Assembly (NCBI GenBank): GCA_965178125.1
Contig: OZ237741.1
Coordinates: 496,001 to 560,000 of the forward strand
DNA: 64,000 nucleotides
Direction: 5' to 3'
Source: Bilabrum cf. latius
Lineage: Eukaryota
A program made the position numbers and the translations under genes. Positions 23,772-64,000 of this stretch are shown here, one piece after another. Numbering within the stretch: the first letter of the stretch is position 1; each line of letters starts with the position of its first letter. The notes beneath the pieces were generated by a model. It was not told the origin of the DNA, did not search any database, and saw nothing but the letters and a program-made list of their open reading frames with translations.

Positions 23772-26700
23772 TCACTACCCACCTGCGGCTCCTCCACTCG
23801 CAGCACCGCCGCTGGCAGCTCCCCGTGCTGCATCTTTGCAGCGCAGCCGAACCCGATCACCTTGTTCCTTCAACGAAATGACTACGCAGATGGAGGGACG
23901 CTCATCTCGTAAGTACTCCGCAATAATTGGTTTGTCAGAGATCCAAAATGTTCCTTCGTCGCTCCACTCGGCGTACGAAATGCTACCCGCGATCAACGAT
24001 GAATGATTGAGGTCGACCCTCATCATCACAGTTTTCCCACTCAGCGAGTCCTTCTTAAGCTGGTTCTCACCGATAGCGTTTCTTTCGTTTCCACCAACCA
24101 CAGTTTTGTGCTCCCCAATATGATATCCCCAGCCAGTATTCTTGTCAGATCCAATTCGCCTCGTTGAATGCGTCCCCGACTGCCAACTGCTGGTCAGATC
24201 TACTCCAAGAACGATATTCCCAGACGCAGCCACTGCTTCCATGCTTAAGTAAAAATCGTAAACGAAGGCTTCTCCATCACCCCATTCCATGTCCTTTGTT
24301 GAGCACACAGTCAACCACTGCGCGGCTGCAGCGTGCTTGTGCACGGTGCACATGTCATTGCTGGTCGCCAGCATGCTCGCTTCCGTGCCGAACGTCAGAC
24401 GGCATCCCTCACTGGACTCGAGCTTGAACTTGTCGGGGATCGTGGGCACCGTGCTGGGCCGGCGGCACTGCACGCAGGCCCCAGGTCCCTGCAAGCTCAC
24501 TGCAACACGATACGTATCCACTGATCGCAAAACGTCAGCGAACAGACGCCCCATCCACTCGACCTTCTCGTCGCCTGCGGCTCGCTTCCCGTACATGATG
24601 CTGCCACGCCCGGCAGAGTCAGCGCGCAGATCCACCAGCATGCACAGCGTGTCGCCTTGCGCGAATGGCTTCTCTGGCTAGGTGTACTTGTCGAGCTTCT
24701 GGGCCTTGCCGTTACAGTGCAACTGGTGCTTCTATGGACAATAGCCCCAGCCGGTGCCCGCAGAGGCTCCGATGAAGTTCTTCGAACTGTCCGGTGAGCC
24801 GTGGAACATGGCGCTACCCTTGTCAACCACCCCGAATATCACATCGTTTGGTGCTGTCCCAAGCTCGACCAGCTCCAGCTCATAATAGATCTAGCGTCCT
24901 AGCCTATCCGTGTTGATGTGATCAGACGAGCCTATCGTTAACCACTGCGCGGCTGCAGCGTGCTTGTGCACGGTGCACATGTCATTGCTGGTCGCCAGCA
25001 TGCTCGCTTCCGTGCCGAACGTCAGACGGCATCCCTCACTGGACTCGAGCTTGAACTTGTCGGGGATCGTGGGCACCGTGCTGGGCCGGCGGCACTGCAC
25101 GCAGGCCCCAGGTCCCTGCAAGCTCACTGCAATACAGTACCTGGGCCCAGTGCGCAAAACGTCAGCGAACAGACGCCCCATCCACTCGACCTTCTCGTCG
25201 CCTGCGGCTCGCTTCCCGTACATGATGCTGCCACGCCCGGCAGAGTCAGCGCGCAGATCCACCAGCATGCACAGCGTGTCGCCTTGCGCGAATGGCTTCT
25301 CTGGCTAGGTGTACTTGTCGAGCTTCTGGGCCTTGCCGTTACAGTGCAACTGGTGCTTCTATGGACAATAGCCCCAGCCGGTGCCCGCAGAGGCTCCGAT
25401 GAAGTTCTTCGAACTGTCCGGTGAGCCGTGGAACATGGCGCTACCCTTGTCAACCACCCCGAATATCACATCGTTTGGTGCTGTCCCAAGCTCGACCAGC
25501 TCCAGCTCGAAGTATTGAACCTAAGCTGTAGGCAGTTGCGAAGACCGTGCCGTCAACCACTGCGCGGCTGCAGCGTGCTTGTGCACGGTGCACATGTCAT
25601 TGCTGGTCGCCAGCATGCTCGCTTCCGTGCCGAACGTCAGACGGCATCCCTCACTGGACTCGAGCTTGAACTTGTCGGGGATCGTGGGCACCGTGCTGGG
25701 CCGGCGGCACTGCACGCAGGCCCCAGGTCCCTGCAAGCTCACTGCAACACGATACGTATCCACTGATCGCAAAACGTCAGCGAACAGACGCCCCATCCAC
25801 TCGACCTTCTCGTCGCCTGCGGCTCGCTTCCCGTACATGATGCTGCCACGCCCGGCAGAGTCAGCGCGCAGATCCACCAGCATGCACAGCGTGTCGCCTT
25901 GCGCGAATGGCTTCTCTGGCTAGGTGTACTTGTCGAGCTTCTGGGCCTTGCCGTTACAGTGCAACTGGTGCTTCTATGGACAATAGCCCCAGCCGGTGCC
26001 CGCAGAGGCTCCGATGAAGTTCTTCGAACTGTCCGGTGAGCCGTGGAACATGGCGCTACCCTTGTCAACCACCCCGAATATCACATCGTTTGGTGCTGTC
26101 CCAAGCTCGACCAGCTCCAGCTCGAAGTATTGAACCTAAGCTGTAGGCAGTTGCGAAGACCGTGCCGTCAACCACTGCGCGGCTGCAGCGTGCTTGTGCA
26201 CGGTGCACATGTCATTGCTGGTCGCCAGCATGCTCGCTTCCGTGCCGAACGTCAGACGGCATCCCTCACTGGACTCGAGCTTGAACTTGTCGGGGATCGT
26301 GGGCACCGTGCTGGGCCGGCGGCACTGCACGCAGGCCCCAGGTCCCTGCAAGCTCACTGCAACACGATACGTATCCACTGATCGCAAAACGTCAGCGAAC
26401 AGACGCCCCATCCACTCGACCTTCTCGTCGCCTGCGGCTCGCTTCCCGTACATGATGCTGCCACGCCCGGCAGAGTCAGCGCGCAGATCCACCAGCATGC
26501 ACAGCGTGTCGCCTTGCGCGAATGGCTTCTCTGGCTAGGTGTACTTGTCGAGCTTCTGGGCCTTGCCGTTACAGTGCAACTGGTGCTTCTATGGACAATA
26601 GCCCCAGCCGGTGCCCGCAGAGGCTCCGATGAAGTTCTTCGAACTGTCCGGTGAGCCGTGGAACATGGCGCTACCCTTGTCAACCACCCCGAATATCACA

Positions 26701-50898: not shown

Positions 50899-51622
50899 AT
50901 GCTCTTGACGCGACTGGCGACACCGGGCGAGCAACCCAGTCGCCAGCGACCGCGATTCGACCGGGACAAACAGCAAAACTTGTCAAACATAGAAGTAGCC
51001 AGACCACGCGTGGTGGCATGCCAGTTGACACAGCCAGGAGAGGCCCTGATGCACGGCCACCACCAGAAGCCACTGAGGCACGAAGGCCTGGCCCCTCTTC
51101 ATCGATTTCACCCAGCTGGCTTCAGTAGCGTACATCCACAGTATCCTGCCAGCGACTGATCGACTCGATCGACCCGTTCGGGGTGAATGACAGCGGCGCC
51201 ATGTAGCTGAAATCGTGAGCCTTAATCCGGTCAGGTGCGCTCTACCACCTGTCCCCGAACAGCACCCAGTCACTCCCAGTGTGCCAAATAGTGCCCGTCT
51301 GTGCCATCCAAATACTGGATCCATTCCCTGGGTATCTAGCGATCTGACCCCTGTACTCGTAGTCCCCCATCGGAGACTCAGACGTGTACACCTCCACGCC
51401 CGTGCCGGCACCGCAGAAACAGCAGCACTGCCCGATTATGACGTAGTACAGCCCCCCACGCTTGAACATAGCGACTCCTTCTAGGTTCCCAGGTCCGATG
51501 GTTGGAGACACGGCGGCAGGAGCTGCTGGTCCTAGCAGGTCCGGGGTCAGCTTCTGGACGTGATTCACGTGAGTCGTCTCGTGGGTGAACGCGACGTACC
51601 CTCCCCATCATCGTCTGCAAAG
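50899..51622 (-). pseudogene. Displaced, truncated copy of the GH43 gene 3' end plus downstream region (partner 61451-62090)
   Basis: Direct repeat; FADDDGE/YVAF carries a 1-nt frameshift near 51600; no 5' half recognisable. Confidence 0.8.
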
Positions 51623-52587: not shown

Positions 52588-55218
52588 ATGCCTTCAACGT
52601 TTGGCGCGAAGGCATGCCTGTGAGGATAACGATTGGACTGTGAATCGCGCGCAGCGGCGTACACCCGTCTTATCTCGCGCACCTGACAGCATTGCTAGGC
52701 AAAGCCATGCATCAAAACCGTATGTTGTGAATCCTCTCTATTTGCTTGTCGCAGCATCCTTGCGGCGGCCATGGTGGCTGCCCCAACTGCATTCGCTGCG
52801 AGCGGGTCCAACGCGTCTCTAGCTCGAAGGCCGGACCTCGAAACGGCTGTGGCAGCAGAGCGCTCTTTGATGCAAGTGCTGAGTACGACAGTAGCTAACT
52901 TTACTGTCAAATCTCACCAGAAGATCTCCAATACGGAAGGCGGCTTCACCGGCGAGCTGATCAGTGGTGACGAGTTCGGATCTTCCGTGGCATCCCTGGG
53001 CGACCTGGACGGAGATGGCACCACCGACCTCGCAGTGGGGGCAGCCTACCATGGTGATGGATTCATCAACCGCGGGGCAACTTGGATCCTCTTCTTGAAC
53101 ACCAACGGCACCGTCAAGTCTCACCAGAAGATCTCCAATACGGAAGGCGGCTTCACCGGCGAGCTGGACAGAACTGACTACTTCGGATCTTCCGTGGCAT
53201 CCCTGGGCGACCTGGACGGAGATGGCACCACCGCCCTCGCAGTGGGGGCAATGGGTGGTGGTGATGGAGGGCCTATGCGCGGGGCAACTTGGATCCTCTT
53301 CTTGAACACCAACGGCACCGTCAAGTCCCACCAGAAGATCTCCAATACGGAAGGCGGCTTCACCGGCGAGCTGGACGATTATGACTAGTTCGGATCTTCC
53401 GTGGCATCCCTGGGCGACCTGGACGGAGATGGCACCACCGCCCTCGCAGTGGGGGCACGCCAAGATGATGATGCGTAGAGTGCCAGCGGGGCAACTTGGA
53501 TCCTCTTCTTGAACACCAACGGCACCGTCAAGTCCCACCAGAAGATCTCCAATACGGAAGGCGGCTTCACCGGCGAGCTGGACAGAAATGACTACTTCGG
53601 ATCTTCCGTGGCATCCCTGGGCGACCTGGATGGAGATGGCACCACCGCCCTCGCAGTGGGGGCAATCGGTGATATTGATGGTGGAAACAATATGCGCGGG
53701 GCAACTTGGATCCTCTTCTTGAACACCAACGGCACCGTCAAGTCCCACCAGAAGATCTCCAATACGGAAGGCGGCTTCACCGGCGAGCTGGACGATTATG
53801 ACTAGTTCGGATCTTCCGTGGCATCCCTGGGCGACCTGGATGGAGATGGCACCACCGACCTCGCAGTGGGGGCAACTCGAGATGATGATGGACGGGACGA
53901 TCGCGGGGCAACTTGGATCCTCTTCTTGAACACCAACGGCACCGTCAAGTCCCACCAGAAGATCTCCAATACGGAAGGCGGCTTCACCGGCGAGCTGGAC
54001 GATTATGACTACTTCGGATCTTCCGTGGCATCCCTGGGCGACCTGGATGGAGATGGCACCACCGCCCTCGCAGTGGGGGCACGCCAAGATAATGATGGGG
54101 GGGATAAGAGTGGGGCTACTTGGATCCTGTTTAATGACGTAGTATTGCCGTCGCCGTCGCCGTCGCCCACCCCAAGCAGCAGTCCGACCCCGAGTAGCAG
54201 CCCCAGCACCTCGCCCACGCCGAGCACCACCAGCAGTCCCAGCACCTCGCCCACGCCGAGCACCACAAGCAGTCCCAGCACCTCGCCCACGCCGAGCACC
54301 ACAAGCAGTCCCAGCACCTCGCCCACGCCGAGCACCACCAGCAGTCCCAGCACCTCGCCCACGCCGAGCATCGCCAGCACCGATAGTGTCACGGGATTGA
54401 CATGCAGTGACGGCGAGACCAACTTCCAGGAGACCGATATTGACTGCGGGGACGCGTCTGCTGGTGACTGTCCCTTGTGCTCCCAGGGCAGGACCTGCAT
54501 TGTCACAGCCAACTGCGCAAGTGGACTCGTGTGCTCGGCCAGCAGCAACACGTGCACTGCTCCTATGAGGCCCAGGGGCAGGCGCATCACGGTGTCCAGG
54601 ACCAAGGTGTCGAGCGTGACCACGCCCATCTTCCAGTCGAACCTTCTGGCTCCCTTCGTCACGGCGATCGGGGATGTCGCCAGAAGTGATGATGTAGTCA
54701 TCGACCGGCTGACCACGTCTTCGACCAGCAGGGGCCGCTCCCTTCAGGCCTCGGGCTCAGAGGAAAATGGCGTTTCCGCCACCGAGCTGGACTTCACCGT
54801 AACAATTCCGCTGGAGCGCACCGACGTGGATCAGACGAGGCAGGACATCCTGGCCTTCCTGCGGGGCATTATGACCACGTCCGAAGATGATACGCTGGTG
54901 GAGGTGCTCAGAATGGCTGCGCCCGCCGAGATGGCCCCGCTACTGGCGGTTGATACGACCAGTATTGCCGTGGAGGTCACTGTACAAGAAGAGGACCTGC
55001 AAGTGGAGGAGGCTGTAGCTCCTTCTACGGACGAAGATGACGACGAGGGAGGGGCCAGCATGGTCATCATCATCGTGGTGGTGGTCGTCGTCATTGCCGT
55101 CATTGTGGGAGCAGTCACCTACTTCTTCAAGTGCAGGAACACCAAGCCAGGGATTGCCAAGAAGGACGACAAGGCGGTCGATGCGAAGGAAGAGCATCAG
55201 GTAGCCGAGGCCGTGTGA
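52588..55218 (+). CDS. Type I membrane protein: FG-GAP (integrin-alpha-like) repeats, PST stalk, Cys-rich module, TM; intron 52620-52754
   Basis: Spliced signal peptide MPSTFGAKACL|ILAAAMVAA; six FGSSVASLGDLDGDG..LAVGA repeats of 207/210 bp; three in-frame TAG; ETDIDCG module; TGA stop. Confidence 0.85.
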
Positions 55219-55503: not shown

Positions 55504-57311
55504 ATGCGCAACAGTTTCAAAATATCCATGCACCGGACTAGAAAGAGAAAGCGAGCGGCCCCAGCAGACCGTCTAGGTCGAGTTGTTCGATCAACTCGCC
55601 TGGGGAAAGCGTGGGAGGATGCCAACGTGCTTGCACACAGTATCAGGACGGCGCTGCACGAAGAAGTTCAAACGGTGTGCGATGCCAAAGCGATTAGTGC
55701 ACCTGTTTCAGACAAAGCACTGCCCGGTTTTCTTGAGGGTGAAAAGTATAGAGACTTTGCATGGCAATTCTGCAAAACTTGGAGGGAAAAATCTATTTCG
55801 GGGACGAACTGGGGGGTGCAGGCACGGCTTCGTGAGATGGCTGCGACTTCCGCGGATAGCATAGTACCGAACCCTTCGACCCTGTACAGGTGGAGAGACA
55901 AATTCAATGAGGCACGGCTTTATGGATATTGTGAGGTGGGGACAAGGAAGCTTTGTTGGCCAGCTGAGGTTCTGTTCGCGGAAACTGTACGACGCCGTGC
56001 AGTTGCACGTCAATCTATGACAATGCGGGAGCGTGGTCAAACACTGGAACGTTTGCTCGTCTGATGCAGGAGGTAGGTGAATCTGTATTGGCTACCCGAA
56101 GAAGGCTTGCCAAGGCCGCTCGCGATGCGAAGGACGAGGCCAGAGCTCTGAAGATCGAGGACCCGAGCAAGTGCCCCGCCGTGCTGATCATGGACAACCT
56201 CGGCATCCACTGCACTGAGATAGCAAAGCGAGTTGCTAAGAAGTACGGAATAAGGCTTGTGTTCCTTCCCGCAGGACTGACTGACCAGATGCAGGTGCTT
56301 GATACGCACATCTTTGCGGCCTTCAAGCGTAAGCTCAGGGCGAGTGTGCGCTCCTTCCAGCGAGCTCTGCGCAAGGTCAACACGAGGAGGATCCGCAAGC
56401 TACAGGCCAAGTACCAAGGTGCTCCAGTTCCAGAGAGTGAAAAGCCTCCTCGAGTGAATCTTGACGAGTCGCTAGCCCCAGCCATCGTGTACGAGGCCTG
56501 CCACGGCGCAATCCTGAACAGCACCAACGCGAGCAAGGGGTTCGAGGACAACGGCCAGTTCCCGCTTGACCCGACCAAGCTGATCAGCCCTGCAGACTGG
56601 ATCCACCTACAGGAGAAAAAGGTGCTGCCGACCCAGGCAGACAGGCTTATTTCTCCAATTCTTTTGCTTGCAAGACGAGAGGCCGGGGCGCAAGCGGCGG
56701 AGGGGGTGGATGTCCTGTCTGCCGATGACATTGTTGGATCCTCGACAGTGCTGAGCGCAGCCGCGTCATCCAGCAGCAGCAGCAGCAGCAGCAGCAGTGC
56801 AGCGGCAGAAGAAGCAGCAGAAAGTGCGTCTGAATTGACGAGCCCCTTTGCTCAAGCTATACTTGGGCTGGAAGTCGACACAGATGATGAGACAGATGAG
56901 GATGAGGACCGACCATCTCAGGCGAAGAGGCCCCGCAGTGGAACTGGAGCCGTCGTTGATCGAATCGTAGGTGGGACTGTGGCAAAGGAAGTCATGCCAA
57001 TCATGGAGAAGGAGATGCTATCCTAGCCGGTGCCTGCATCTGTGGTAGATACCAGGAACAGGTAGGGTGGCTTTGTTGGGGGGGTTCGAGAGCGGCTGCT
57101 ACAGCACCGCGCATTGGCCCCTGGGACGATGCGCTCCGCCTTGGCAAAGGCAGAGACGAAGGCGAAAGCTCTACAGACTGGAGTTACGTTTCTTGAGGCA
57201 TATGTGTCTGCCTACATGGGTGCAGATGCGGCTGCGCCGATCCTCGCGCAGGCACGCCAAGCCATGGACGACATTGATGGAGGCGATCGGGTGAAGGAGG
57301 GAAGACAATGA
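55504..57311 (+). mobile_element. Defective pogo/Tc5-like DDE_1 transposase
   Basis: HTH-like PSTLYRWRDK; frame change at 56064; VLIMDNLGIH..LVFLPAGLTDQMQVLD..FAAFK. First catalytic Asp region not seen; TIRs not identified. Confidence 0.7.
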
Positions 57312-60072
57312 TAATAGATCAAACATATTTCAATTAATAGACAAACCATATCGTCTAAGGCACCTTAAATATCGATTTGTGAAACTGTTGCACATCGTTG
57401 CTACACTCATCACACAATTGCGGCGCCGCGCAATCCCCCCCAGGGCCCTGCTAAAGCTAATACTTTGAATTCACTGTTTACCCTCTTACTGAGCTGCTCT
57501 GGCGACGAGAGCCGCCGCGATGGATTCGCAAGCGTCGAATTAGCCGGATTGTGTTGATAATGGACTCCGAATCCCTTTTGTCGCCGCGCAAATCTCTGAT
57601 CCGGAACCGGCAAAAACCAGAAAAAAGTGTTGCGTTCCGTTACATCCGACGGATGTGGCGCTGGAATCGTGGCACCTTGTTGGAAGCACGCGCACCAACC
57701 AGCGCAGAAAGAGAGACGCCTGCAGCACAAAGTAACATACACTGAGTGCAGAAGGCGTACAACATAAGTTGAGTTATAGCTGACATCTGAACCTCCTCTT
57801 CGTCGAGGAAGCCACGGGTGGAAAAAATCACCTTCTGAAGTATGCATCTGTACGGTCTTAGCTGAACTCCGAAATCGCCGATTGGGCCCTCCTCGCGGGG
57901 CCTTGTACAAAGTACCAGTGAGCATTTTCGAGTATTTGATGACGTTTATTGATAAATATATGGTTTTATATCATGAATATGTGGTCTAATTTTGCCAGAA
58001 ACGTCTAGAACGCGAGATATATGGGCCCAAAGAGAACTGTTTTGGCCTCGACCGCCGTTGGTGAGGCCAGCAAGGTCTCTGAGATTGAGGTCGCGCGGTG
58101 GGCGCAGGACCCGCTCGAGGTGCAGGAGCAGATGCGACGTAGCGATGCGAGGAGTGAGAGAGAAAGAAAGCGGCTAGGGATGCAGACCAGGAGAGGCGGC
58201 GACGCGGGGTGGGCGACGGATGGAAAGGGGGGTGGTGTGGGTGGAGCAGAGAGAGAGGGCGAGGGATGGGGGGGGGGCGGAGCAGAGAGAGAAGGCGATA
58301 GATGGGCGGGGGGGCAAAGCAGGGAGGAGGGGGGGGCGGCGGTTCACCAAGTGGGGAGGAAGCAGTGGAGGAGAAGATGAGTGGTGGGGTCATCGGGTTG
58401 ATACGGCGGATACAAAGGGGGAGGCACAGGCCGGGCAGGTGGGGGTTTGGGCATGTGGGGGACGAGTGACTCGGGTCAGGGGGGATCGGATCACCGACCA
58501 CATGCGGATGTGGAAGTTGAGAGGTCACAATTAGACTCGTGCGGCAATCAAGCCGCGTGCTATTCGGGCGCTGAGGGGCAGCGCTCGCCAGTTTTCTTTT
58601 TGGTAACTTTGAGGATGGGCTCTCGGAGGAAACCAACTGCAACCATGTGTGACTGTCTGCGAGATTAGGGTGCTGTGTACAACGTGTGATCTCAGAATCT
58701 GAAGCGAACCTCTTGGGAGTCCCATTGTTCGCCCCATTTCTTGTCTGTTTATGGGATTGAGCCTCCAATTTTCACGCAGTTATTAGATAAAGGGTCAAAT
58801 ATTCATGTCAGCAATTGTTGATACATGTACGGTCGTCAGAGCCCATCCACATTCCTTGCCCGGTCAGTCAGAATGCGCCGCCGCTTTCCGGGTCGATCCA
58901 CGACCTTACTTTCCGCTTTCTTGCCCCGTGCAACACAACCAGAATAATGTCCTTCTATTTTGCTTGTATTTCTTTCCCCCGCTTTCTGCTCGACCGACCT
59001 AGTCGGTGTCCAGCCCATTTTCTCGCACACGGCTCTTCAGTGCCCGGACCATTGCGCGCTGCCCCCACAGCTCTGCCTGCGCCTATTCACGCGGTTCAAT
59101 GCTGGACACTTTCCTTTCCTCTTGCCCTCAAACTGTTCTCGCAGCTCCTTCATATACTAGTCATTAAATGCCTTTTTGCCCTCTTTCGATGCTGAACTCG
59201 CCTACTTCCTGTCAGCCCTCTCCTGGATCGCTTTTCGCTGGCTCAATACAGTACTCTCGGCCGCGTGTAACTCATAAGCCCCCATATCTTCCATTTTTTG
59301 GCGAGAGCTAGCGCGGTTGATGAAGTGCCGCGCACCCTCTGCCGCTGTAAATGCAGTAGCGATGGCACCAGCCTGCATCGTCTGAACATCATCCCACGTA
59401 GCTCATCTGCTCCTTTGAAGAACTTACTACCATGAGTCCGCCTGGATACACTATCCTATGCTACTGCCTCACTCAGAAAGTGACCAGAATTCAGACTAGC
59501 ACCCAGATCGCCCAAATTCATGCTGAGGCCTGCCCTGCCCCCCCGGTGCATTGCCAAGTGGCTGTCGATCCGACCCGTGGGGTAGTCCTGCTGGCATGCT
59601 TCCCGCTGACGCTGGGTGAAGGACTGCTTGATACAGTGATGGGTGGCCTTTCTATCGACCCAATTCTCGCCTCTTTGCCCATGATTGTATCTTTTAAGCT
59701 GACGAAGCTACGCGGAGGTTGGGTTCTGGGTCAAAGAGTTGAGTCGGTGCTTCTGGATCTCGACCACCTCCAGCTGCCGCCTTATACACAGCGCCTCTCG
59801 GGTCCTTTTGAGCGCCTTCCAATCTTTGCCGATCGCCTCCGCCTCCCCCTCCTCCTGCTTGTTCTTGAGCCGCCTGGACTTGGTCACGACGTTATGCTTG
59901 GCCTCCCCGGTCGCACGGAGCACCAGCTTGAGTATCTCGAACACCCCCACTCCGTTTCGTTCAACAGTCTATCCTCTCCTTGCTCCTTGTCCCCGATAGG
60001 CTTGGTATTCGGCGATCACCTGGGCAGCCAAGCTGCAGCCACATCCTGCTGACCAGCAGCACTGGAACAGCA

Positions 60073-60465
60073 GGAGGAGGAGGAGGAGGAGGAGGAGGAG
60101 GAGGAGGAGGAGGAGGAGGAGGAGGAGGAGGAGGAGGAGGAGGAGGAGGAGGAGGAGGAGGAGGAGGAGGAGGAGGAGGAGGAGGAGGAAGAGGAGGAGG
60201 AGGAGGAGGAGGAGGAGGAGGAGGAGGAGGAGGAGGAGGAGGAGGAGGAGGAGGAGGAGGAGGAGGAGGAGGAGGAGGAGGAGGAGGAGGAGGAAGAGGA
60301 GGAGGAGGAGGAGGAGGAGGAGGAGGAGGAGGAGGAGGAGGAGGAGGAGGAGGAGGAGGAGGAGGAGGAGGAGGAGGAGGAGGAGGAGGAGGAGGAGGAG
60401 GAGGAGGAGGAGGAGGAGGAGGAGGAGGAGGAGGAGGAGGAGGAGGAGGAGGAGGAGGAGGAGGA
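60073..60465 (+). repeat. (GGA)~131 microsatellite
   Basis: Pure GGA run with two AGA interruptions at 60190 and 60295. Confidence 0.98.
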
Positions 60466-61675
60466 GCAGCTACCCCCCTTCAGACATGTCCTGCTCTCCG
60501 GTAGCCCTCAGTTGCGCGATAGCATGTCCCTACGACCTAGTGGCCTCCTCTGCGGCTGCAGCAACATTTGCTTCGGCAGCTGCAGCTTGCTCACTCTTCC
60601 TCTTTGTCACTTCTTCGCCAGCCTAGAATATAAGTACACTCATGGCTATTAATCAAGCGGCGCTCACGATCGGGAGGAAAGTAGCAGTTTGTTCCAGTCC
60701 GGCCGGTTCCCGTTCACTTGGGACAGCTCCTTCCCGCAGATGGCCGCGGCCAACGAGCGGTACAGTTGGAGCATGGTCTGATCAGATTAAGATTAATTCT
60801 AGATCTACTTTACCTTCCTTGCCAATTTTTACCCGGCCGGTCATTGGTTTCACAGTGGTGACCATGCCCAGCCCGGCCGTTGTCACAACGGCGTTGTGAG
60901 GACCGTGAACCATAGTGAGGCACATACCGTCTCGACAGACAGTTTCGGCTGCCCTTGCCAAAAATTACGAATCTCTGTATACATTGATGCCCAATGATGC
61001 TGCAAAATGATATCCTCGCACCATTTCTGCGTCACTTCGAACAGACGTACACATTCGACGTGGGCCTCGGCTGCCGCCACAACACGCCTCAACTTAGCAT
61101 CTCTCGTGCCTACACAGGCAAAGAATTTTTAAACTACTTTTTACTGTTGTAGCATAGTTGGACTCCCAATTCACTCGAAATTTATGGAGGTATTCGGCGA
61201 TAAAGTCAGAGTTCAGCTATGCCGCCTACATAGTTATGCCGCCTACATAGTTGGTATTAAGGAGACAGAGTCTGATTCGTTGTTGACGTCAAATGAGATG
61301 ATAAGCGTCTGTGCGATGAGAATGGCTCTGCGAAGAAGGAGAACGCGGCAACACCTTGTCGAACGAACGAACGAATCTTGATTTGTCCGTAGGTGGGAAG
61401 AGGAATTGTAGCGTTAGACATCGTAATCTGATTAACGGAAGAGGCAGACCATGCTCTAGTCGCGACTGGCGACACCGAGCGAGCAACCCAGTCGCCGGCG
61501 ACCGCGATTCGACCGGGACAAACAGCAATACGTGTCAAATACAGAAGTGACCAGTCTACGCGTGGCGGCATGCCAGTTGGCACAGCCAGGAGAGGCCCTG
61601 ATGCACGGCCACCACCACAAGCCACCGAGGCACGAAGGCCCCTGGGCCCTCTTCATCGAGTTCACCCAGCTGACT

Positions 61676-62090
61676 TCAGTAGCGTACATCCACAGTATCC
61701 TGCCAGCGACTGATCGACTCGATCGACCCGTTCGGGGTGAATGACAGCGGCACCATGTAGCTGAAATCGTGAGCCTTAATCCGGTCAGGTGCGCTCTACC
61801 ACCTGTCCCCGAACAGCACCCAGTCACTCCCAGTGTGCCAAATAGTGCCCGTCTGTGCCATCCAAATACTGGATCCATTCCCTGGGTATCTAGCGATCTG
61901 ACCCCTGTACTCGTAGTCCCCCATCGGAGACTCAGACGTGTACACCTCCACGCCCGTGCCGGCACCGCAGAAACAGCAGCACTACCCGATGATGACGTAG
62001 TACAGCCCCTCACGCTTGAACATAGCGACTCCTTCTAGGTTCCCAGGTCCGATGGTTGGAGACACGGCGGCAGGAGCTGCTGGTCCTAGC
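61676..62090 (-). CDS. 3' part of a GH43-like glycoside hydrolase gene, interrupted by the AT-rich insertion
   Basis: NLEGVAMFKREGLYYVIIG*CCCFC, AQTG, FGDRW*SAPDRIKAHDFSYMAPLSF; TGA at 61676. Confidence 0.75.
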
Positions 62091-62553
62091 CCCCCCCGCT
62101 ACGGTAATAAATAAATTTATTCCCTTCGGTTAAGGATGATTAACATCATCAATAGTTCCAGTCCATCAGAGCTAAAGCTCTTCAGTCCGTTCCACTCCTT
62201 TTGGAGCTAGTCGCTCCAAAAGTCAAGGTGAGCCTCTTCATACTGCTACTTCATATAACTGCTTTATCCTTCTAATTATATAAAATCAATTATATATAAA
62301 ACTCTATACGATGACCATATCCATACTTTGGGTATATATTATAGTAAGTTCTAATCAAAACGTGGATGTAGCCCTCTTGTGAAGGTGTTCTGGGACTCTA
62401 GCCATTTTCTAGCCAAAAGTTCCATCACTTTATGGGACTCCATTATTCAACCTTCTAAACTACCTTCATTATACCCCCTTATCCTCGCTTATACCTTCAC
62501 AAATGGAACAAACGCGCTTTTATTTTTAAATTGTTATAGAGCGTTTAAATTGA

Positions 62554-62587
62554 CTTAAAAAATATATTTATTATAGGTATATACAGA
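62554..62587 (+). promoter_or_regulatory. Conserved upstream motif of the element's genes (second copy 63663-63696)
   Basis: CTTAAA(A/T)AATATATTTATTATAGGTATATACAGA directly precedes both ATGs, 33/34 identical. Confidence 0.55.
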
Positions 62588-63607
62588 ATGGAATTATTAA
62601 AATGGGAAAATGGAACCTTGAAAGCTACACAACCAAAAGAATATTATGAACGAAATGGATTTTAGGTTAATTTTGAAGGGAAAACCTATCATATAGCAAT
62701 GGATAAAGATTATATAAGATGGTTTTTGAAGGACTATAAACCTTATGAAATAATAACAACATTCATAACAGATATGAGTGAAGTATTCAATGGATAGGAT
62801 AAATTTAATGAACCTTTGAATACTTGGGATGTTTCAAATGTTAAGGATATGAGTTTAATGTTTCAAAGTTGTAGAAGCTTTAATCAACCATTGAGCAATT
62901 GGGATGTTTCTAAGGTTGAAAAAATGTCGTCTATGTTCTATTTTTGTTCTAAATTCAATCAATCATTGAACGATTGGAATGTTAGTAATGTTAGGGATAT
63001 GAGTGGTATGTTTGGTTCTTGTTCAAGATTCAATCAACCATTGGATAATTGGGATGTTTCTAAGGTTGAAAATATGTCCTCTATGTTTAATGGATGTTGG
63101 AACTTCAATCAACCATTGGATAATTGGGATGTTTCTAACGTTGAAAATATGTCCTCTATGTTCCATTATTCTGAATTCAATCAATCATTGAACGATTGGA
63201 ATGTTAGTAATGTTAGGGATATGAGTGGTATGTTTGGTTCTTGTTCAAGATTCAATCAACCATTGGGTAATTGGGATGTTTCTAACGTTGAATATATATC
63301 CTCTATGTTTAATGGATGTTAGAACTTCAATCAACCATTGGATAATTGGGATGTTTCCAATGTCTAGAGTAAGTTTTAGATGTTAAAAGATTGTGAAAGT
63401 TTCAATCATTTAGAGAACGGTATTAAGGGTATAAGAATTGATTATTCTACAACATTGATACCGTTGTTAGAAAGACGAAAACATAAAACCATTAAAAAAA
63501 CAAAGAAATATAGAGAGGAATTAATTGCTAAAGCGTGGCACCCTTCAAGATTAGATTGGGTATTGGATAACGAGGAGCGAGACGAGATAGAGGATAATTT
63601 TAATTAA
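62588..63607 (+). CDS. DUF285/BspA-like leucine-rich-repeat protein (339 aa)
   Basis: Repeats FNQPLDNWDVSNVENMSSMF; five in-frame TAG (62663, 62795, 63320, 63365, 63377); TAA stop; C-terminal REELIAKAWHPSRL. Confidence 0.85.
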
Positions 63608-63696
63608 TAGAATTTTAATAATATTAATGATTATTTAATATTATAGTGTGAGTTTAAAAAGGCTTAAATAATATATTTATTATAGGTATATACAGA

Positions 63697-64000
63697 ATGG
63701 AAGTTTTAAAATGGGAAAATGGAACCTTGAAAGCTACAAAACCAAAAGAATATTATTTTAGAAAAGATAATTATATTGTGAAATTTGAAGGTAAAACATA
63801 TTACGTAGCTAAAGATACAGATTTTCTTCTTCACGCATTGTAGTTTTTGAAACCTGAATTATTAGTAACAACATTTATTACGAATATGTTAAACCTATTT
63901 GATAATATGATAATTGAATCACCAATAAATTCATGGGATGTTTCAAATGTTAAAGATATGACCGATATGTTTTATGGGTGTCATTCGTTTAATCAACCTT
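63697..64000 (+). CDS. Second DUF285/BspA-like paralog (partial)
   Basis: MEVLKWENGTLKATKPKEYY matches the paralog N-terminus; TAG at 63841; INSWDVSNVKDMTDMF. Confidence 0.85.

Follow-up and report, generated by a model that had tools for sequence, protein, structure and literature searches.

The 64,000-nt window analysed here (contig OZ237741.1, positions 496,001–560,000), to which all coordinates below refer, ends in a 1.9 kb segment of AT-rich DNA (62091–64000). This segment is the visible part of an element whose other end lies outside the window. It consists of a terminal module followed by two paralogous genes with DUF285 repeats, namely gene 1 and the beginning of gene 2, and is preceded by a flank of host DNA. 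In-frame TAG codons occur both in the genes of the element and in long reading frames of the host. The features at this locus are collected in Table 1. An earlier note on this DNA had described the segment as an endogenous virus-like element whose genes use a TAG codon reassigned by the host, and had compared it with the provirophages of Cafeteria.

Table 1. Features on both sides of the host–element boundary; X1 and X5 are public sequencing runs
Feature	Position (nt)	Strand	Description
Host flank	61451–62090		Partial second copy of host segment 50899–51536; truncated at 62090
Host open reading frame (ORF)	61676–62116	−	Matches ORF 51122–51607 (−) up to the break; the flank carries the 3′ part
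Terminal module	62091–62520	+	Non-coding, 38% GC, repeated; other inner neighbours occur; possible terminal repeat
Upstream motif of gene 1	62561–62587	+	27 nt, identical to that of gene 2
Gene 1	62588–63607	+	DUF285/BspA-like, 339 aa + TAA; open only with TAG as a residue
TAG codon 26, gene 1	62663–62665	+	Identical in X5 and X1 contigs
TAG codon 70, gene 1	62795–62797	+	Cys in sister repeats; no differences in X5 and X1 contigs
TAG codon 245, gene 1	63320–63322	+	Sister repeat has TGG (Trp); no differences in X5 contig
TAG codon 260, gene 1	63365–63367	+	No differences in X5 and X1 contigs
TAG codon 264, gene 1	63377–63379	+	No differences in X5 and X1 contigs
WHP module of gene 1	63407–63604	+	Consensus ...KYKEELI.K.WHPSR..DW.LDNEE...; 60 residues; no Pfam family
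Upstream motif of gene 2	63670–63696	+	27 nt, identical to that of gene 1
Gene 2	63697–64000	+	Paralogue of gene 1; first 101 codons only, cut by the window end
TAG codon 49, gene 2	63841–63843	+	Lys at the aligned place of gene 1; X5 and X1 contigs without differences

The left boundary of the element was determined from a within-window comparison of the host flank with its second copy. The regions 61451–62090 and 50899–51536 are 96.1% identical over 640 nt, and both copies share ...GCTGCTGGTCCTAGC, ending in ...CCTAGC. Past this point, the paralogue continues as AGGTCCGGGG... (AGGTCCGGGGTCAGC...) inside the minus-strand host frame, and the copy adjoining the element continues past 62090 as CCCCCCCGCTACGG... 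(CCCCCCCGCTACGGTAATAAATAAA...), which is unlike the paralogue. Because the paralogous host copy diverges after ...CCTAGC, the break was placed between 62090 and 62091. The GC content falls from 0.585 (1–62090) to 0.384 (62091–62520) and then to 0.284 (62521–64000). The minus-strand host ORF in the flank gave a weak Pfam match to GH43 (E = 0.0097), which is under the cut-off.

Contigs of four public runs (X1, X3, X5 and X7) were aligned to positions 60700–64000. It was found that they break exactly at 62090/62091: a host-side contig stops at 62090 and a contig of X7 starts at 62091. A break at this position would be expected if a repeated element ended here. In X5, no contig covered positions 61477–62031. 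A sequence of X7 that follows position 62090 (AGGTCCGGGG...) was considered as an empty allele of the site and was rejected, since it equals the paralogue from 51537 onward. The exact boundary proposed in the earlier note was thus recovered from both the paralogous copy and the contig ends of the public runs, and the left end of a foreign, AT-rich and repeated element in host nuclear DNA probably lies exactly at position 62091.

The terminal module contains no ORF of 70 aa or more, gave no Rfam match and has no notable internal repeat, only short chance-like ones; no tRNA was found in the window. The k-mer depth of contigs was compared between the genes, a host contig (60700–60880 or 60811–61227) and the contig over 62377–62629 in the terminal module. 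The respective values were 603–731, 20.9 and 1727 in X1, 273–290, 70.1 and 535 in X3, and 10.6–11.5, 2 and 41.5 in X5, so that the genes exceed the host 29-, 3.9- and 5.8-fold; contig k-mer depth is not equal to copy number, and AT/GC library bias could inflate these ratios. The contigs of the terminal module had 2.0–3.6 times the depth of the gene contigs in these three runs. Loose contig ends at 62517/62518 run into other sequence, which represents a second inner junction, and X7 carries 62091–62523 without the genes. The copies of the module vary, with four listed indels of 1 nt each and a variant with a deletion of 147–148 nt. The depth, the second junction and the gene-less copy of X7 fit either a terminal repeat or a module common to a family of elements.

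In the coding part, both of the two indels listed among the copies were 3 nt long. One skipping joint from 62647 to 63863 was also observed (1215 nt skipped); one of its sides comprises 26 letters, and undetermined letters lie between the sides. In X3, positions 63697–63807 were not covered by contigs. The run X5 has another organism label and originates from another study; its contigs cover all six TAG codons with zero differences, and its sole host-side contig shows 27 letter differences and 14 gap positions over approximately 400 nt. No RNA run was found among the 10 public runs matched.

The protein encoded by gene 1 is composed of an N-terminal lead-in, approximately eight DUF285 repeats of 24–25 residues and a C-terminal module, which was named WHP. 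A comparison with the Pfam family PF03382 (DUF285, curated cut-off of 25 bits) gave 287 bits for gene 1 (E = 1.1e-86, three stretches) and 39.3 bits for gene 2 (E = 6.3e-10). Gene 2 shares 58% amino-acid identity with gene 1 over 96 codons; at the nucleotide level, the two genes agree at 62 of 72 nt over the first 24 codons and are 75% identical along 313 nt. The 27 identical nucleotides upstream of the two genes are only mildly above the 62/72 of the adjoining coding start and, with two genes, represent an observation rather than proof of a promoter. A search of viral contigs with a 32-nt upstream motif gave no matches. The sequence AAATTGA is located at 62547–62553, 34 nt before the ATG of gene 1, and the corresponding place before gene 2 differs; it resembles the early promoter motif AAAATTGA of mimivirus-like viruses and can serve as a lead only. 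Gene 1 terminates with TAA followed by TAG (63605–63610), and no frameshifts were found in the element genes. The frames with their DUF285 matches, the upstream motifs and the TAA terminator are intact, as had been stated in the earlier note.

Translation of gene 1 under table 11 revealed five internal stops, every one of which is TAG. Over the 440 codons of both genes, six TAG, no TAA and no TGA are in frame, in agreement with the count on which the earlier note was built. The base composition predicts 19.4 TAA, 10.4 TGA and 10.4 TAG in 440 codons, and the other five frames of gene 1 contain 8–28 TAA, 6–12 TGA and 0–12 TAG. None of 5000 shuffles was free of both TAA and TGA, and the probability of their absence was estimated at approximately 4e-14. 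The six TAG codons are somewhat fewer than expected, and the five in gene 1 lie within the range of its other frames. Since TAA and TGA are absent and TAG occurs at the level of other frames, the reading frame is protected against two stops and indifferent to the third.

A nonsense-decay model that starts from the present codons (kappa 1–4, GC-to-AT bias 1–3) showed that TAG would account for only 27–31% of new stops, and the probability that six of six stops would be TAG was 4e-4 to 9e-4. The expectation that decay should not favour TAG was thus supported by modelling. The ratio of nonsynonymous to synonymous substitution rates (dN/dS) was 0.57 for gene 1 compared with gene 2 (96 codons), and a comparison of repeat blocks (126 codons) gave 0.49. 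The candidate Gln codons of the element genes are CAA (10), TAG (6) and CAG (0), and all 13 Trp residues of gene 1 are encoded by TGG.

A reading of TAG as a residue was then compared with its reading as a stop in the host part of the window. The longest frame in the window increases from 645 aa to 2537 aa, and five frames exceed 1150 aa (2537, 1282, 1192, 1167 and 1152 aa). The long TAG-containing frames carry eukaryotic domains, namely AAA ATPase, EF-hand calcium-dependent kinase, FG-GAP, GH28 and peptidase S41. Across 11 host frames with 11,437 codons in total, TAG occurs internally 84 times and TAA never, and the terminators were TGA in ten frames and TAA in one; the reassignment of TAG in the host, which had been presumed in the earlier note, is thereby substantiated. 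The host uses CAA 111 times and CAG 285 times. At this ratio, approximately 33 TAA would be expected if TAA were Gln too; none was found, so that only TAG is reassigned.

The meaning of TAG was evaluated by comparison with homologues of host proteins. The one TAG site covered by a 76%-identical orthologue has Gln there, and seven TAG sites aligned with a 50%-identical homologue correspond to Q, E, E, S, R, Q and N. The sum of BLOSUM62 scores at TAG sites was the best for Gln (20), with 16 for Glu and −13 for Tyr. The TAG sites in the kinase and GH28 frames are located in unconserved stretches. As judged from these alignments, TAG is a sense codon in the host and most likely encodes Gln, with TGA or TAA as terminators. 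Tyr was considered as another candidate on the basis of two hints. In the FG-GAP protein (52687–55218, plus strand), two repeats have DDYD-TAG-FGSS, and three sister repeats have Tyr at this place (TAC, a one-base difference). The second hint is the DEAD-box site AL#GG (# denotes TAG), where Tyr is often found in this family. Both hints are outweighed by the eight orthologue sites (Q, Q, E, E, S, R, Q, N), and Tyr was rejected.

The closest named kin of the host kinase are proteins of Cafeteria roenbergensis, with 48% and 43% identity. By this measure, the host is a stramenopile near the bicosoecids, Cafeteria-like but not Cafeteria itself, and the analogy with Cafeteria provirophages drawn in the earlier note is reasonable. 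A literature search found no report of a stramenopile with TAG as a nuclear sense codon.

To return to the element, a search with the whole gene 1 protein gave thousands of DUF285 matches, of which the named ones were mostly bacterial BspA-like surface proteins. These proteins contain the same 24–25-residue repeat (PF03382) and an N-terminal lead-in such as that of gene 1. However, they end in secretion or cell-surface domains, for example PF18962, whereas gene 1 carries the WHP module and in-frame TAG and no such domain.

In a search of 1.84 billion representatives with the WHP module alone, 24 proteins were matched at E ≤ 1e-3. The module has the invariant pattern L..W.P.R..W..D. Its closest relatives (P0125–P0127) are 49–73% identical, and the last 23 residues of P0125 are the same as those of gene 1. 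The protein P0131 has the three-part architecture of gene 1, and several further WHP-bearing proteins are repeat proteins with the pattern NPNIT...WDW. The look-alike clusters of a WHP homologue, the repeat protein P0148, were 92–100% viral, with Nucleocytoviricota as the commonest phylum. A cluster look-up of ten C-terminal relatives returned only the name "hypothetical protein", and no consistent Pfam match was found among 12 members.

On viral contigs, the WHP module was detected at 24 loci. These contigs are 6–548 kb long with 19–53% GC, two of them are named GVMAG, and in every case the module forms the C-terminal end of a protein, with or without repeats, whose frame is open in the standard code. 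The nucleocytoplasmic large DNA virus (NCLDV) capsid family PF04451 was above the cut-off in both of the two searchable records of such contigs. Among prokaryotes (one genome per species, 185,579 species), only two marginal matches were found. A search of metagenome contigs with the close C-terminal alignment gave at least 591 pattern matches, of which two were confirmed among the matches listed; both contigs are short (2062 and 1617 nt). On this distribution, the WHP module is assigned to a giant-virus type that is nearly absent from prokaryote genomes. One viral contig of 151,878 nt was found to contain three paralogous WHP-capped leucine-rich-repeat proteins (L018, L021 and L023), one of them at the contig end.

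The DNA beyond 62090 is foreign in composition, repeated and sharply bounded, its genes fit the variant code of the host and no other, and it includes one module of giant-virus type. With TAG kept and TAA and TGA excluded, the element genes fit the host code and not the standard one, as the earlier note had proposed. Because they are free of TAA and TGA and contain TAG about as often as other frames, these genes evolved under the host code and are full-length only under it. The best explanation, to which we assign a probability of roughly 0.6, is a virus-type element locked to this code, with its class left open. We infer that the segment represents one end of a virus that has integrated or of a mobile element that depends on a virus. 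It could be either a fragment of a giant virus with a terminal DUF285 array, like that of Aureococcus anophagefferens virus (AaV), or a virophage/polinton-like element that borrowed such genes. From the description of the segment as virus-like, its foreign, virus-type and repeated character therefore stands; the visible 1.9 kb has nothing that identifies a virophage, and AaV arrays fit it at least equally.

If TAG is Gln, AT pressure could have converted CAG into TAG by a silent C-to-T change, which would explain the absence of CAG and the presence of TAG as the only G-ending candidate Gln codon. The code would lock the element to hosts with TAG as sense, as translation of gene 1 in a cell with the standard code would end at residue 25. 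The proteins of the element probably serve as binding proteins built on a repeat scaffold and may be carried in particles, as is the case for two DUF285 proteins of AaV. A fuller scenario, to which we give slightly less than even odds, is that the segment represents an integrated end from a lineage of DNA viruses (a giant virus or a virophage/polinton-like satellite) that co-evolved with a stramenopile clade in which TAG is Gln, that TAG replaced CAG in its genes, and that the code acts as a two-way lock on host range.

A number of points weigh against a virus-type, code-locked element. No contig bridging 62090/62091 was present among the matches listed for the four public runs, so that the join itself rests on the assembly, and the caution given above for the depth ratios belongs here as well. 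The idea raised with the earlier note that TAG would fall at conserved Gln positions failed for all six codons: the one conserved Gln of the repeat is encoded by CAA in seven of seven repeats, and TAG is aligned with Tyr/Ile, Cys, Trp, Glu, Ser and Lys in sister repeats or the paralogue. Since all six TAG are at variable positions, Gln is neither supported nor contradicted by the element, which has no evidence of its own for the meaning of TAG. The dN/dS values near 0.5 show only modest constraint. The nearest C-terminal relatives (P0125–P0127, 454 codons) do not contain TAG, although they were called under the standard code and represent a biased sample.

Further such points concern the relationships of the proteins and the content of the segment. 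The top-scoring DUF285 relatives are bacterial BspA-like proteins (35–59% identity over 46–81% of the query), and only the short C-terminal module links gene 1 to viruses. Searches of viral contigs for close relatives gave nine pattern matches for gene 1, 18 for P0125 and six for P0131, none of which was confirmed. No gene for a capsid protein, packaging ATPase, protease, integrase or polymerase was found in the visible 1.9 kb. In addition, a gene family that belongs to the host would show the same restriction to TAG.

Among the more specific or competing explanations, the one that survives best, although we consider it doubtful, is that the segment is the end of an Imitervirales-type giant virus, integrated or else assembly-joined and persistently replicating, with terminal DUF285 families beside a terminal repeat. 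It is favoured by the occurrence of the WHP module on contigs of up to 548 kb, by the NCLDV capsid family in both searchable records and by the 152-kb contig with three WHP-capped paralogues, one of them terminal. According to the available parts of the publications on AaV (PMC10720644, PMC5917014, PMC7507832), this giant virus of a stramenopile alga (Kratosvirus quantuckense) has 38 DUF285 genes that are concentrated in the terminal regions and have a highly conserved upstream motif, and two of the DUF285 proteins were detected in virions. The window element is similar in that paralogous DUF285 genes with a conserved upstream motif lie near an end of AT-rich DNA associated with a stramenopile. 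However, AaV is a free virus whose genes were described in the standard code, whereas the window element is joined to host DNA and has in-frame TAG, and the likeness is by description only.

The 7-fold difference in the depth ratio between two samples with the same organism label (29 vs. 3.9) also speaks for a giant virus, although library bias would also produce it. Against such an origin, no giant-virus core gene was seen in the visible 1.9 kb, and the several-fold depth, the deletion variants of the terminal module and the gene-less copy of X7 would rather suggest a family of small mobile elements.

An endogenous virophage of the mavirus type is unlikely. Such an element would be 15–30 kb long, with terminal inverted repeats and genes for integrase, protein-primed polymerase and capsid, and a giant virus would reactivate it. 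Gene modules and promoters are common to virophages and their giant viruses. The Cafeteria-like host, the several-fold depth of the gene contigs relative to the host and the approximately 2–3.6-fold depth of the terminal module together with the second inner junction at 62518, a combination expected of a terminal repeat, are all consistent with a virophage. Endogenous mavirus-like elements (EMALEs) of Cafeteria burkhardae are likewise AT-rich and multi-copy and are sharply delimited by GC content from the GC-rich nuclear genome of their bicosoecid host, as far as described in the available text of two publications (PMC8547959, PMC10945749). They are flanked by terminal inverted repeats and have type-specific promoter motifs (PMC8547959, available text).

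Several features distinguish the window element from EMALEs. No virophage core gene is visible in its 1.9 kb, EMALEs were described under the standard code, and the host of the window element is only 43–48% identical to Cafeteria in a conserved kinase and uses another code. Gene 1 also has no confirmed relative on viral contigs, a collection that presumably includes virophages. DUF285 arrays are documented in the giant virus AaV, and no mention of them was found for EMALEs in the available text of PMC8547959. On the published descriptions, the terminal arrays of AaV appear to match the visible anatomy at least as well as EMALEs do.

A non-viral origin is quite improbable. In this case, the segment would be a host transposon or an AT-rich island with a host-owned DUF285 family, which may originally have come from a virus or bacterium and would be translated in the host code. 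The TAG-only pattern indeed testifies to translation in the host code rather than to viral ownership, a transposase-like frame of the host (55968–57311) also has two in-frame TAG, and DUF285 was reported at 90 places in the genome of the AaV host (PMC7507832, available text). On the other hand, the GC content drops by 20–30 points at a single base, unlike at every other gene in 62 kb of host DNA, the C-terminal module occurs on giant-virus contigs, and the codon use is wholly unlike that of the host (no CAG against 10 CAA in the element genes; 285 CAG against 111 CAA in the host).

The mitochondria of Cafeteria read TGA as Trp. Decaying pseudogenes that derive from a virus, bacterial prey or an organelle with the standard code, or a misassembled join, with TAG as ordinary nonsense mutations, would agree with the missing bridging contig, with the bacterial nature of the best overall DUF285 matches and with TAG opposite unrelated residues of sister repeats (one being a single G-to-A change from TGG), yet this is very improbable given the modelled probability for six of six TAG, the absence of frameshifts, coding indels that are multiples of three in both listed cases, the near absence of the WHP module from prokaryote genomes, no excess of bacterial promoter-like sites (17 vs. 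11.2 ± 3.3 in shuffles) and no terminator-like site, TGG for 13 of 13 Trp in gene 1 and no TGA in frame, where an AT-rich mitochondrial gene should use TGA, and the contig break in four runs exactly where a real end of a repeated element would lie. A mitochondrial insert is likewise opposed by the DUF285 nature of the genes and by the lack of in-frame TGA and of any tRNA or RNA family found. The six in-frame TAG codons also speak against DNA of a bacterial contaminant or prey. The giant-virus-type module and the absence of in-frame TGA make a bacterial or organellar origin unlikely, in line with the argument of the earlier note against contamination.

Some other features of the host DNA were observed. 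Just left of the duplicated flank, a 109-nt repeat (61252–61360) was found, which has an inverted copy at 34344–34450 with 96% identity; its contig depth was very high in the four runs, up to 5887. The frame 23772–31385 on the minus strand (2537 aa, 23 TAG) encodes an AAA ATPase domain followed by five near-identical tandem modules of approximately 205 aa, with TAG in corresponding places of the modules. The EF-hand calcium-dependent kinase frame (34904–38752, minus strand) is split between the HR and DLKxEN motifs by a stop-free insert of approximately 39 residues; solved homologues lack this insert, which probably represents an in-frame intron. The same open frame contains a VAT-1/ADH-like domain upstream of the kinase. 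The DDE_1 transposase-like frame mentioned above (plus strand, E = 1.8e-6) represents a second mobile-element gene in the host code. At approximately 59900–60400, there is a long simple trinucleotide tract whose two strands read as poly-Leu and poly-Arg, respectively.

The earlier note knew of no description of a recoded provirophage; this needs to be qualified, as recoded viral sequences of other types are in print. In Blastocrithidia triatomae, a tombus-like endogenous viral element uses the reassigned stops of its host, and its authors proposed that the virus had adopted the code and become locked to such hosts (PMC11108086, available text). This element resembles the present one as a virus-derived insert in a protist nuclear genome with a frame that uses reassigned stop codons. 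It differs in being a single fragment of an RNA-virus polymerase in a trypanosomatid with all three stops reassigned, whereas the window element is repeated DNA of giant-virus type in a stramenopile with TAG alone reassigned.

In the GVMAGs V2 collection, some giant-virus genomes were better called with a single reassigned stop, TAG included, and hosts with variant codes were proposed for them (PMC13524828, available text). These are computational calls without a host, whereas the window element physically adjoins DNA of a host that shares the reassignment. In addition, an ochre suppressor tRNA has been published for a virophage clade, as far as the accessible part of that work indicates.

Thus, the principle of a recoded viral element is already known, and what is new is the combination of giant-virus-type DNA, its physical linkage to a host in which likewise TAG alone is reassigned, and the stramenopile nature of this host. 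Variant genetic codes have often been proposed as barriers to viruses and gene transfer, and few natural virus–host pairs exist in which this can be tested. In the window, host and virus-type DNA lie on one molecule and share the same reassignment, with TAG as sense and TAA and TGA as stops; if this interpretation is true, it would be the first eukaryotic DNA virus physically linked to a host that shares its variant nuclear code. If the rest of the element is viral, a host would be supplied for the so far host-less recoded giant-virus genomes, and standard gene callers would fragment such elements, which would therefore escape virus surveys. It would also be shown that a change of the genetic code can be crossed or followed by large DNA viruses or their satellites, and a culturable Cafeteria-like system would be available for studying how such a change reshapes the host range of viruses.

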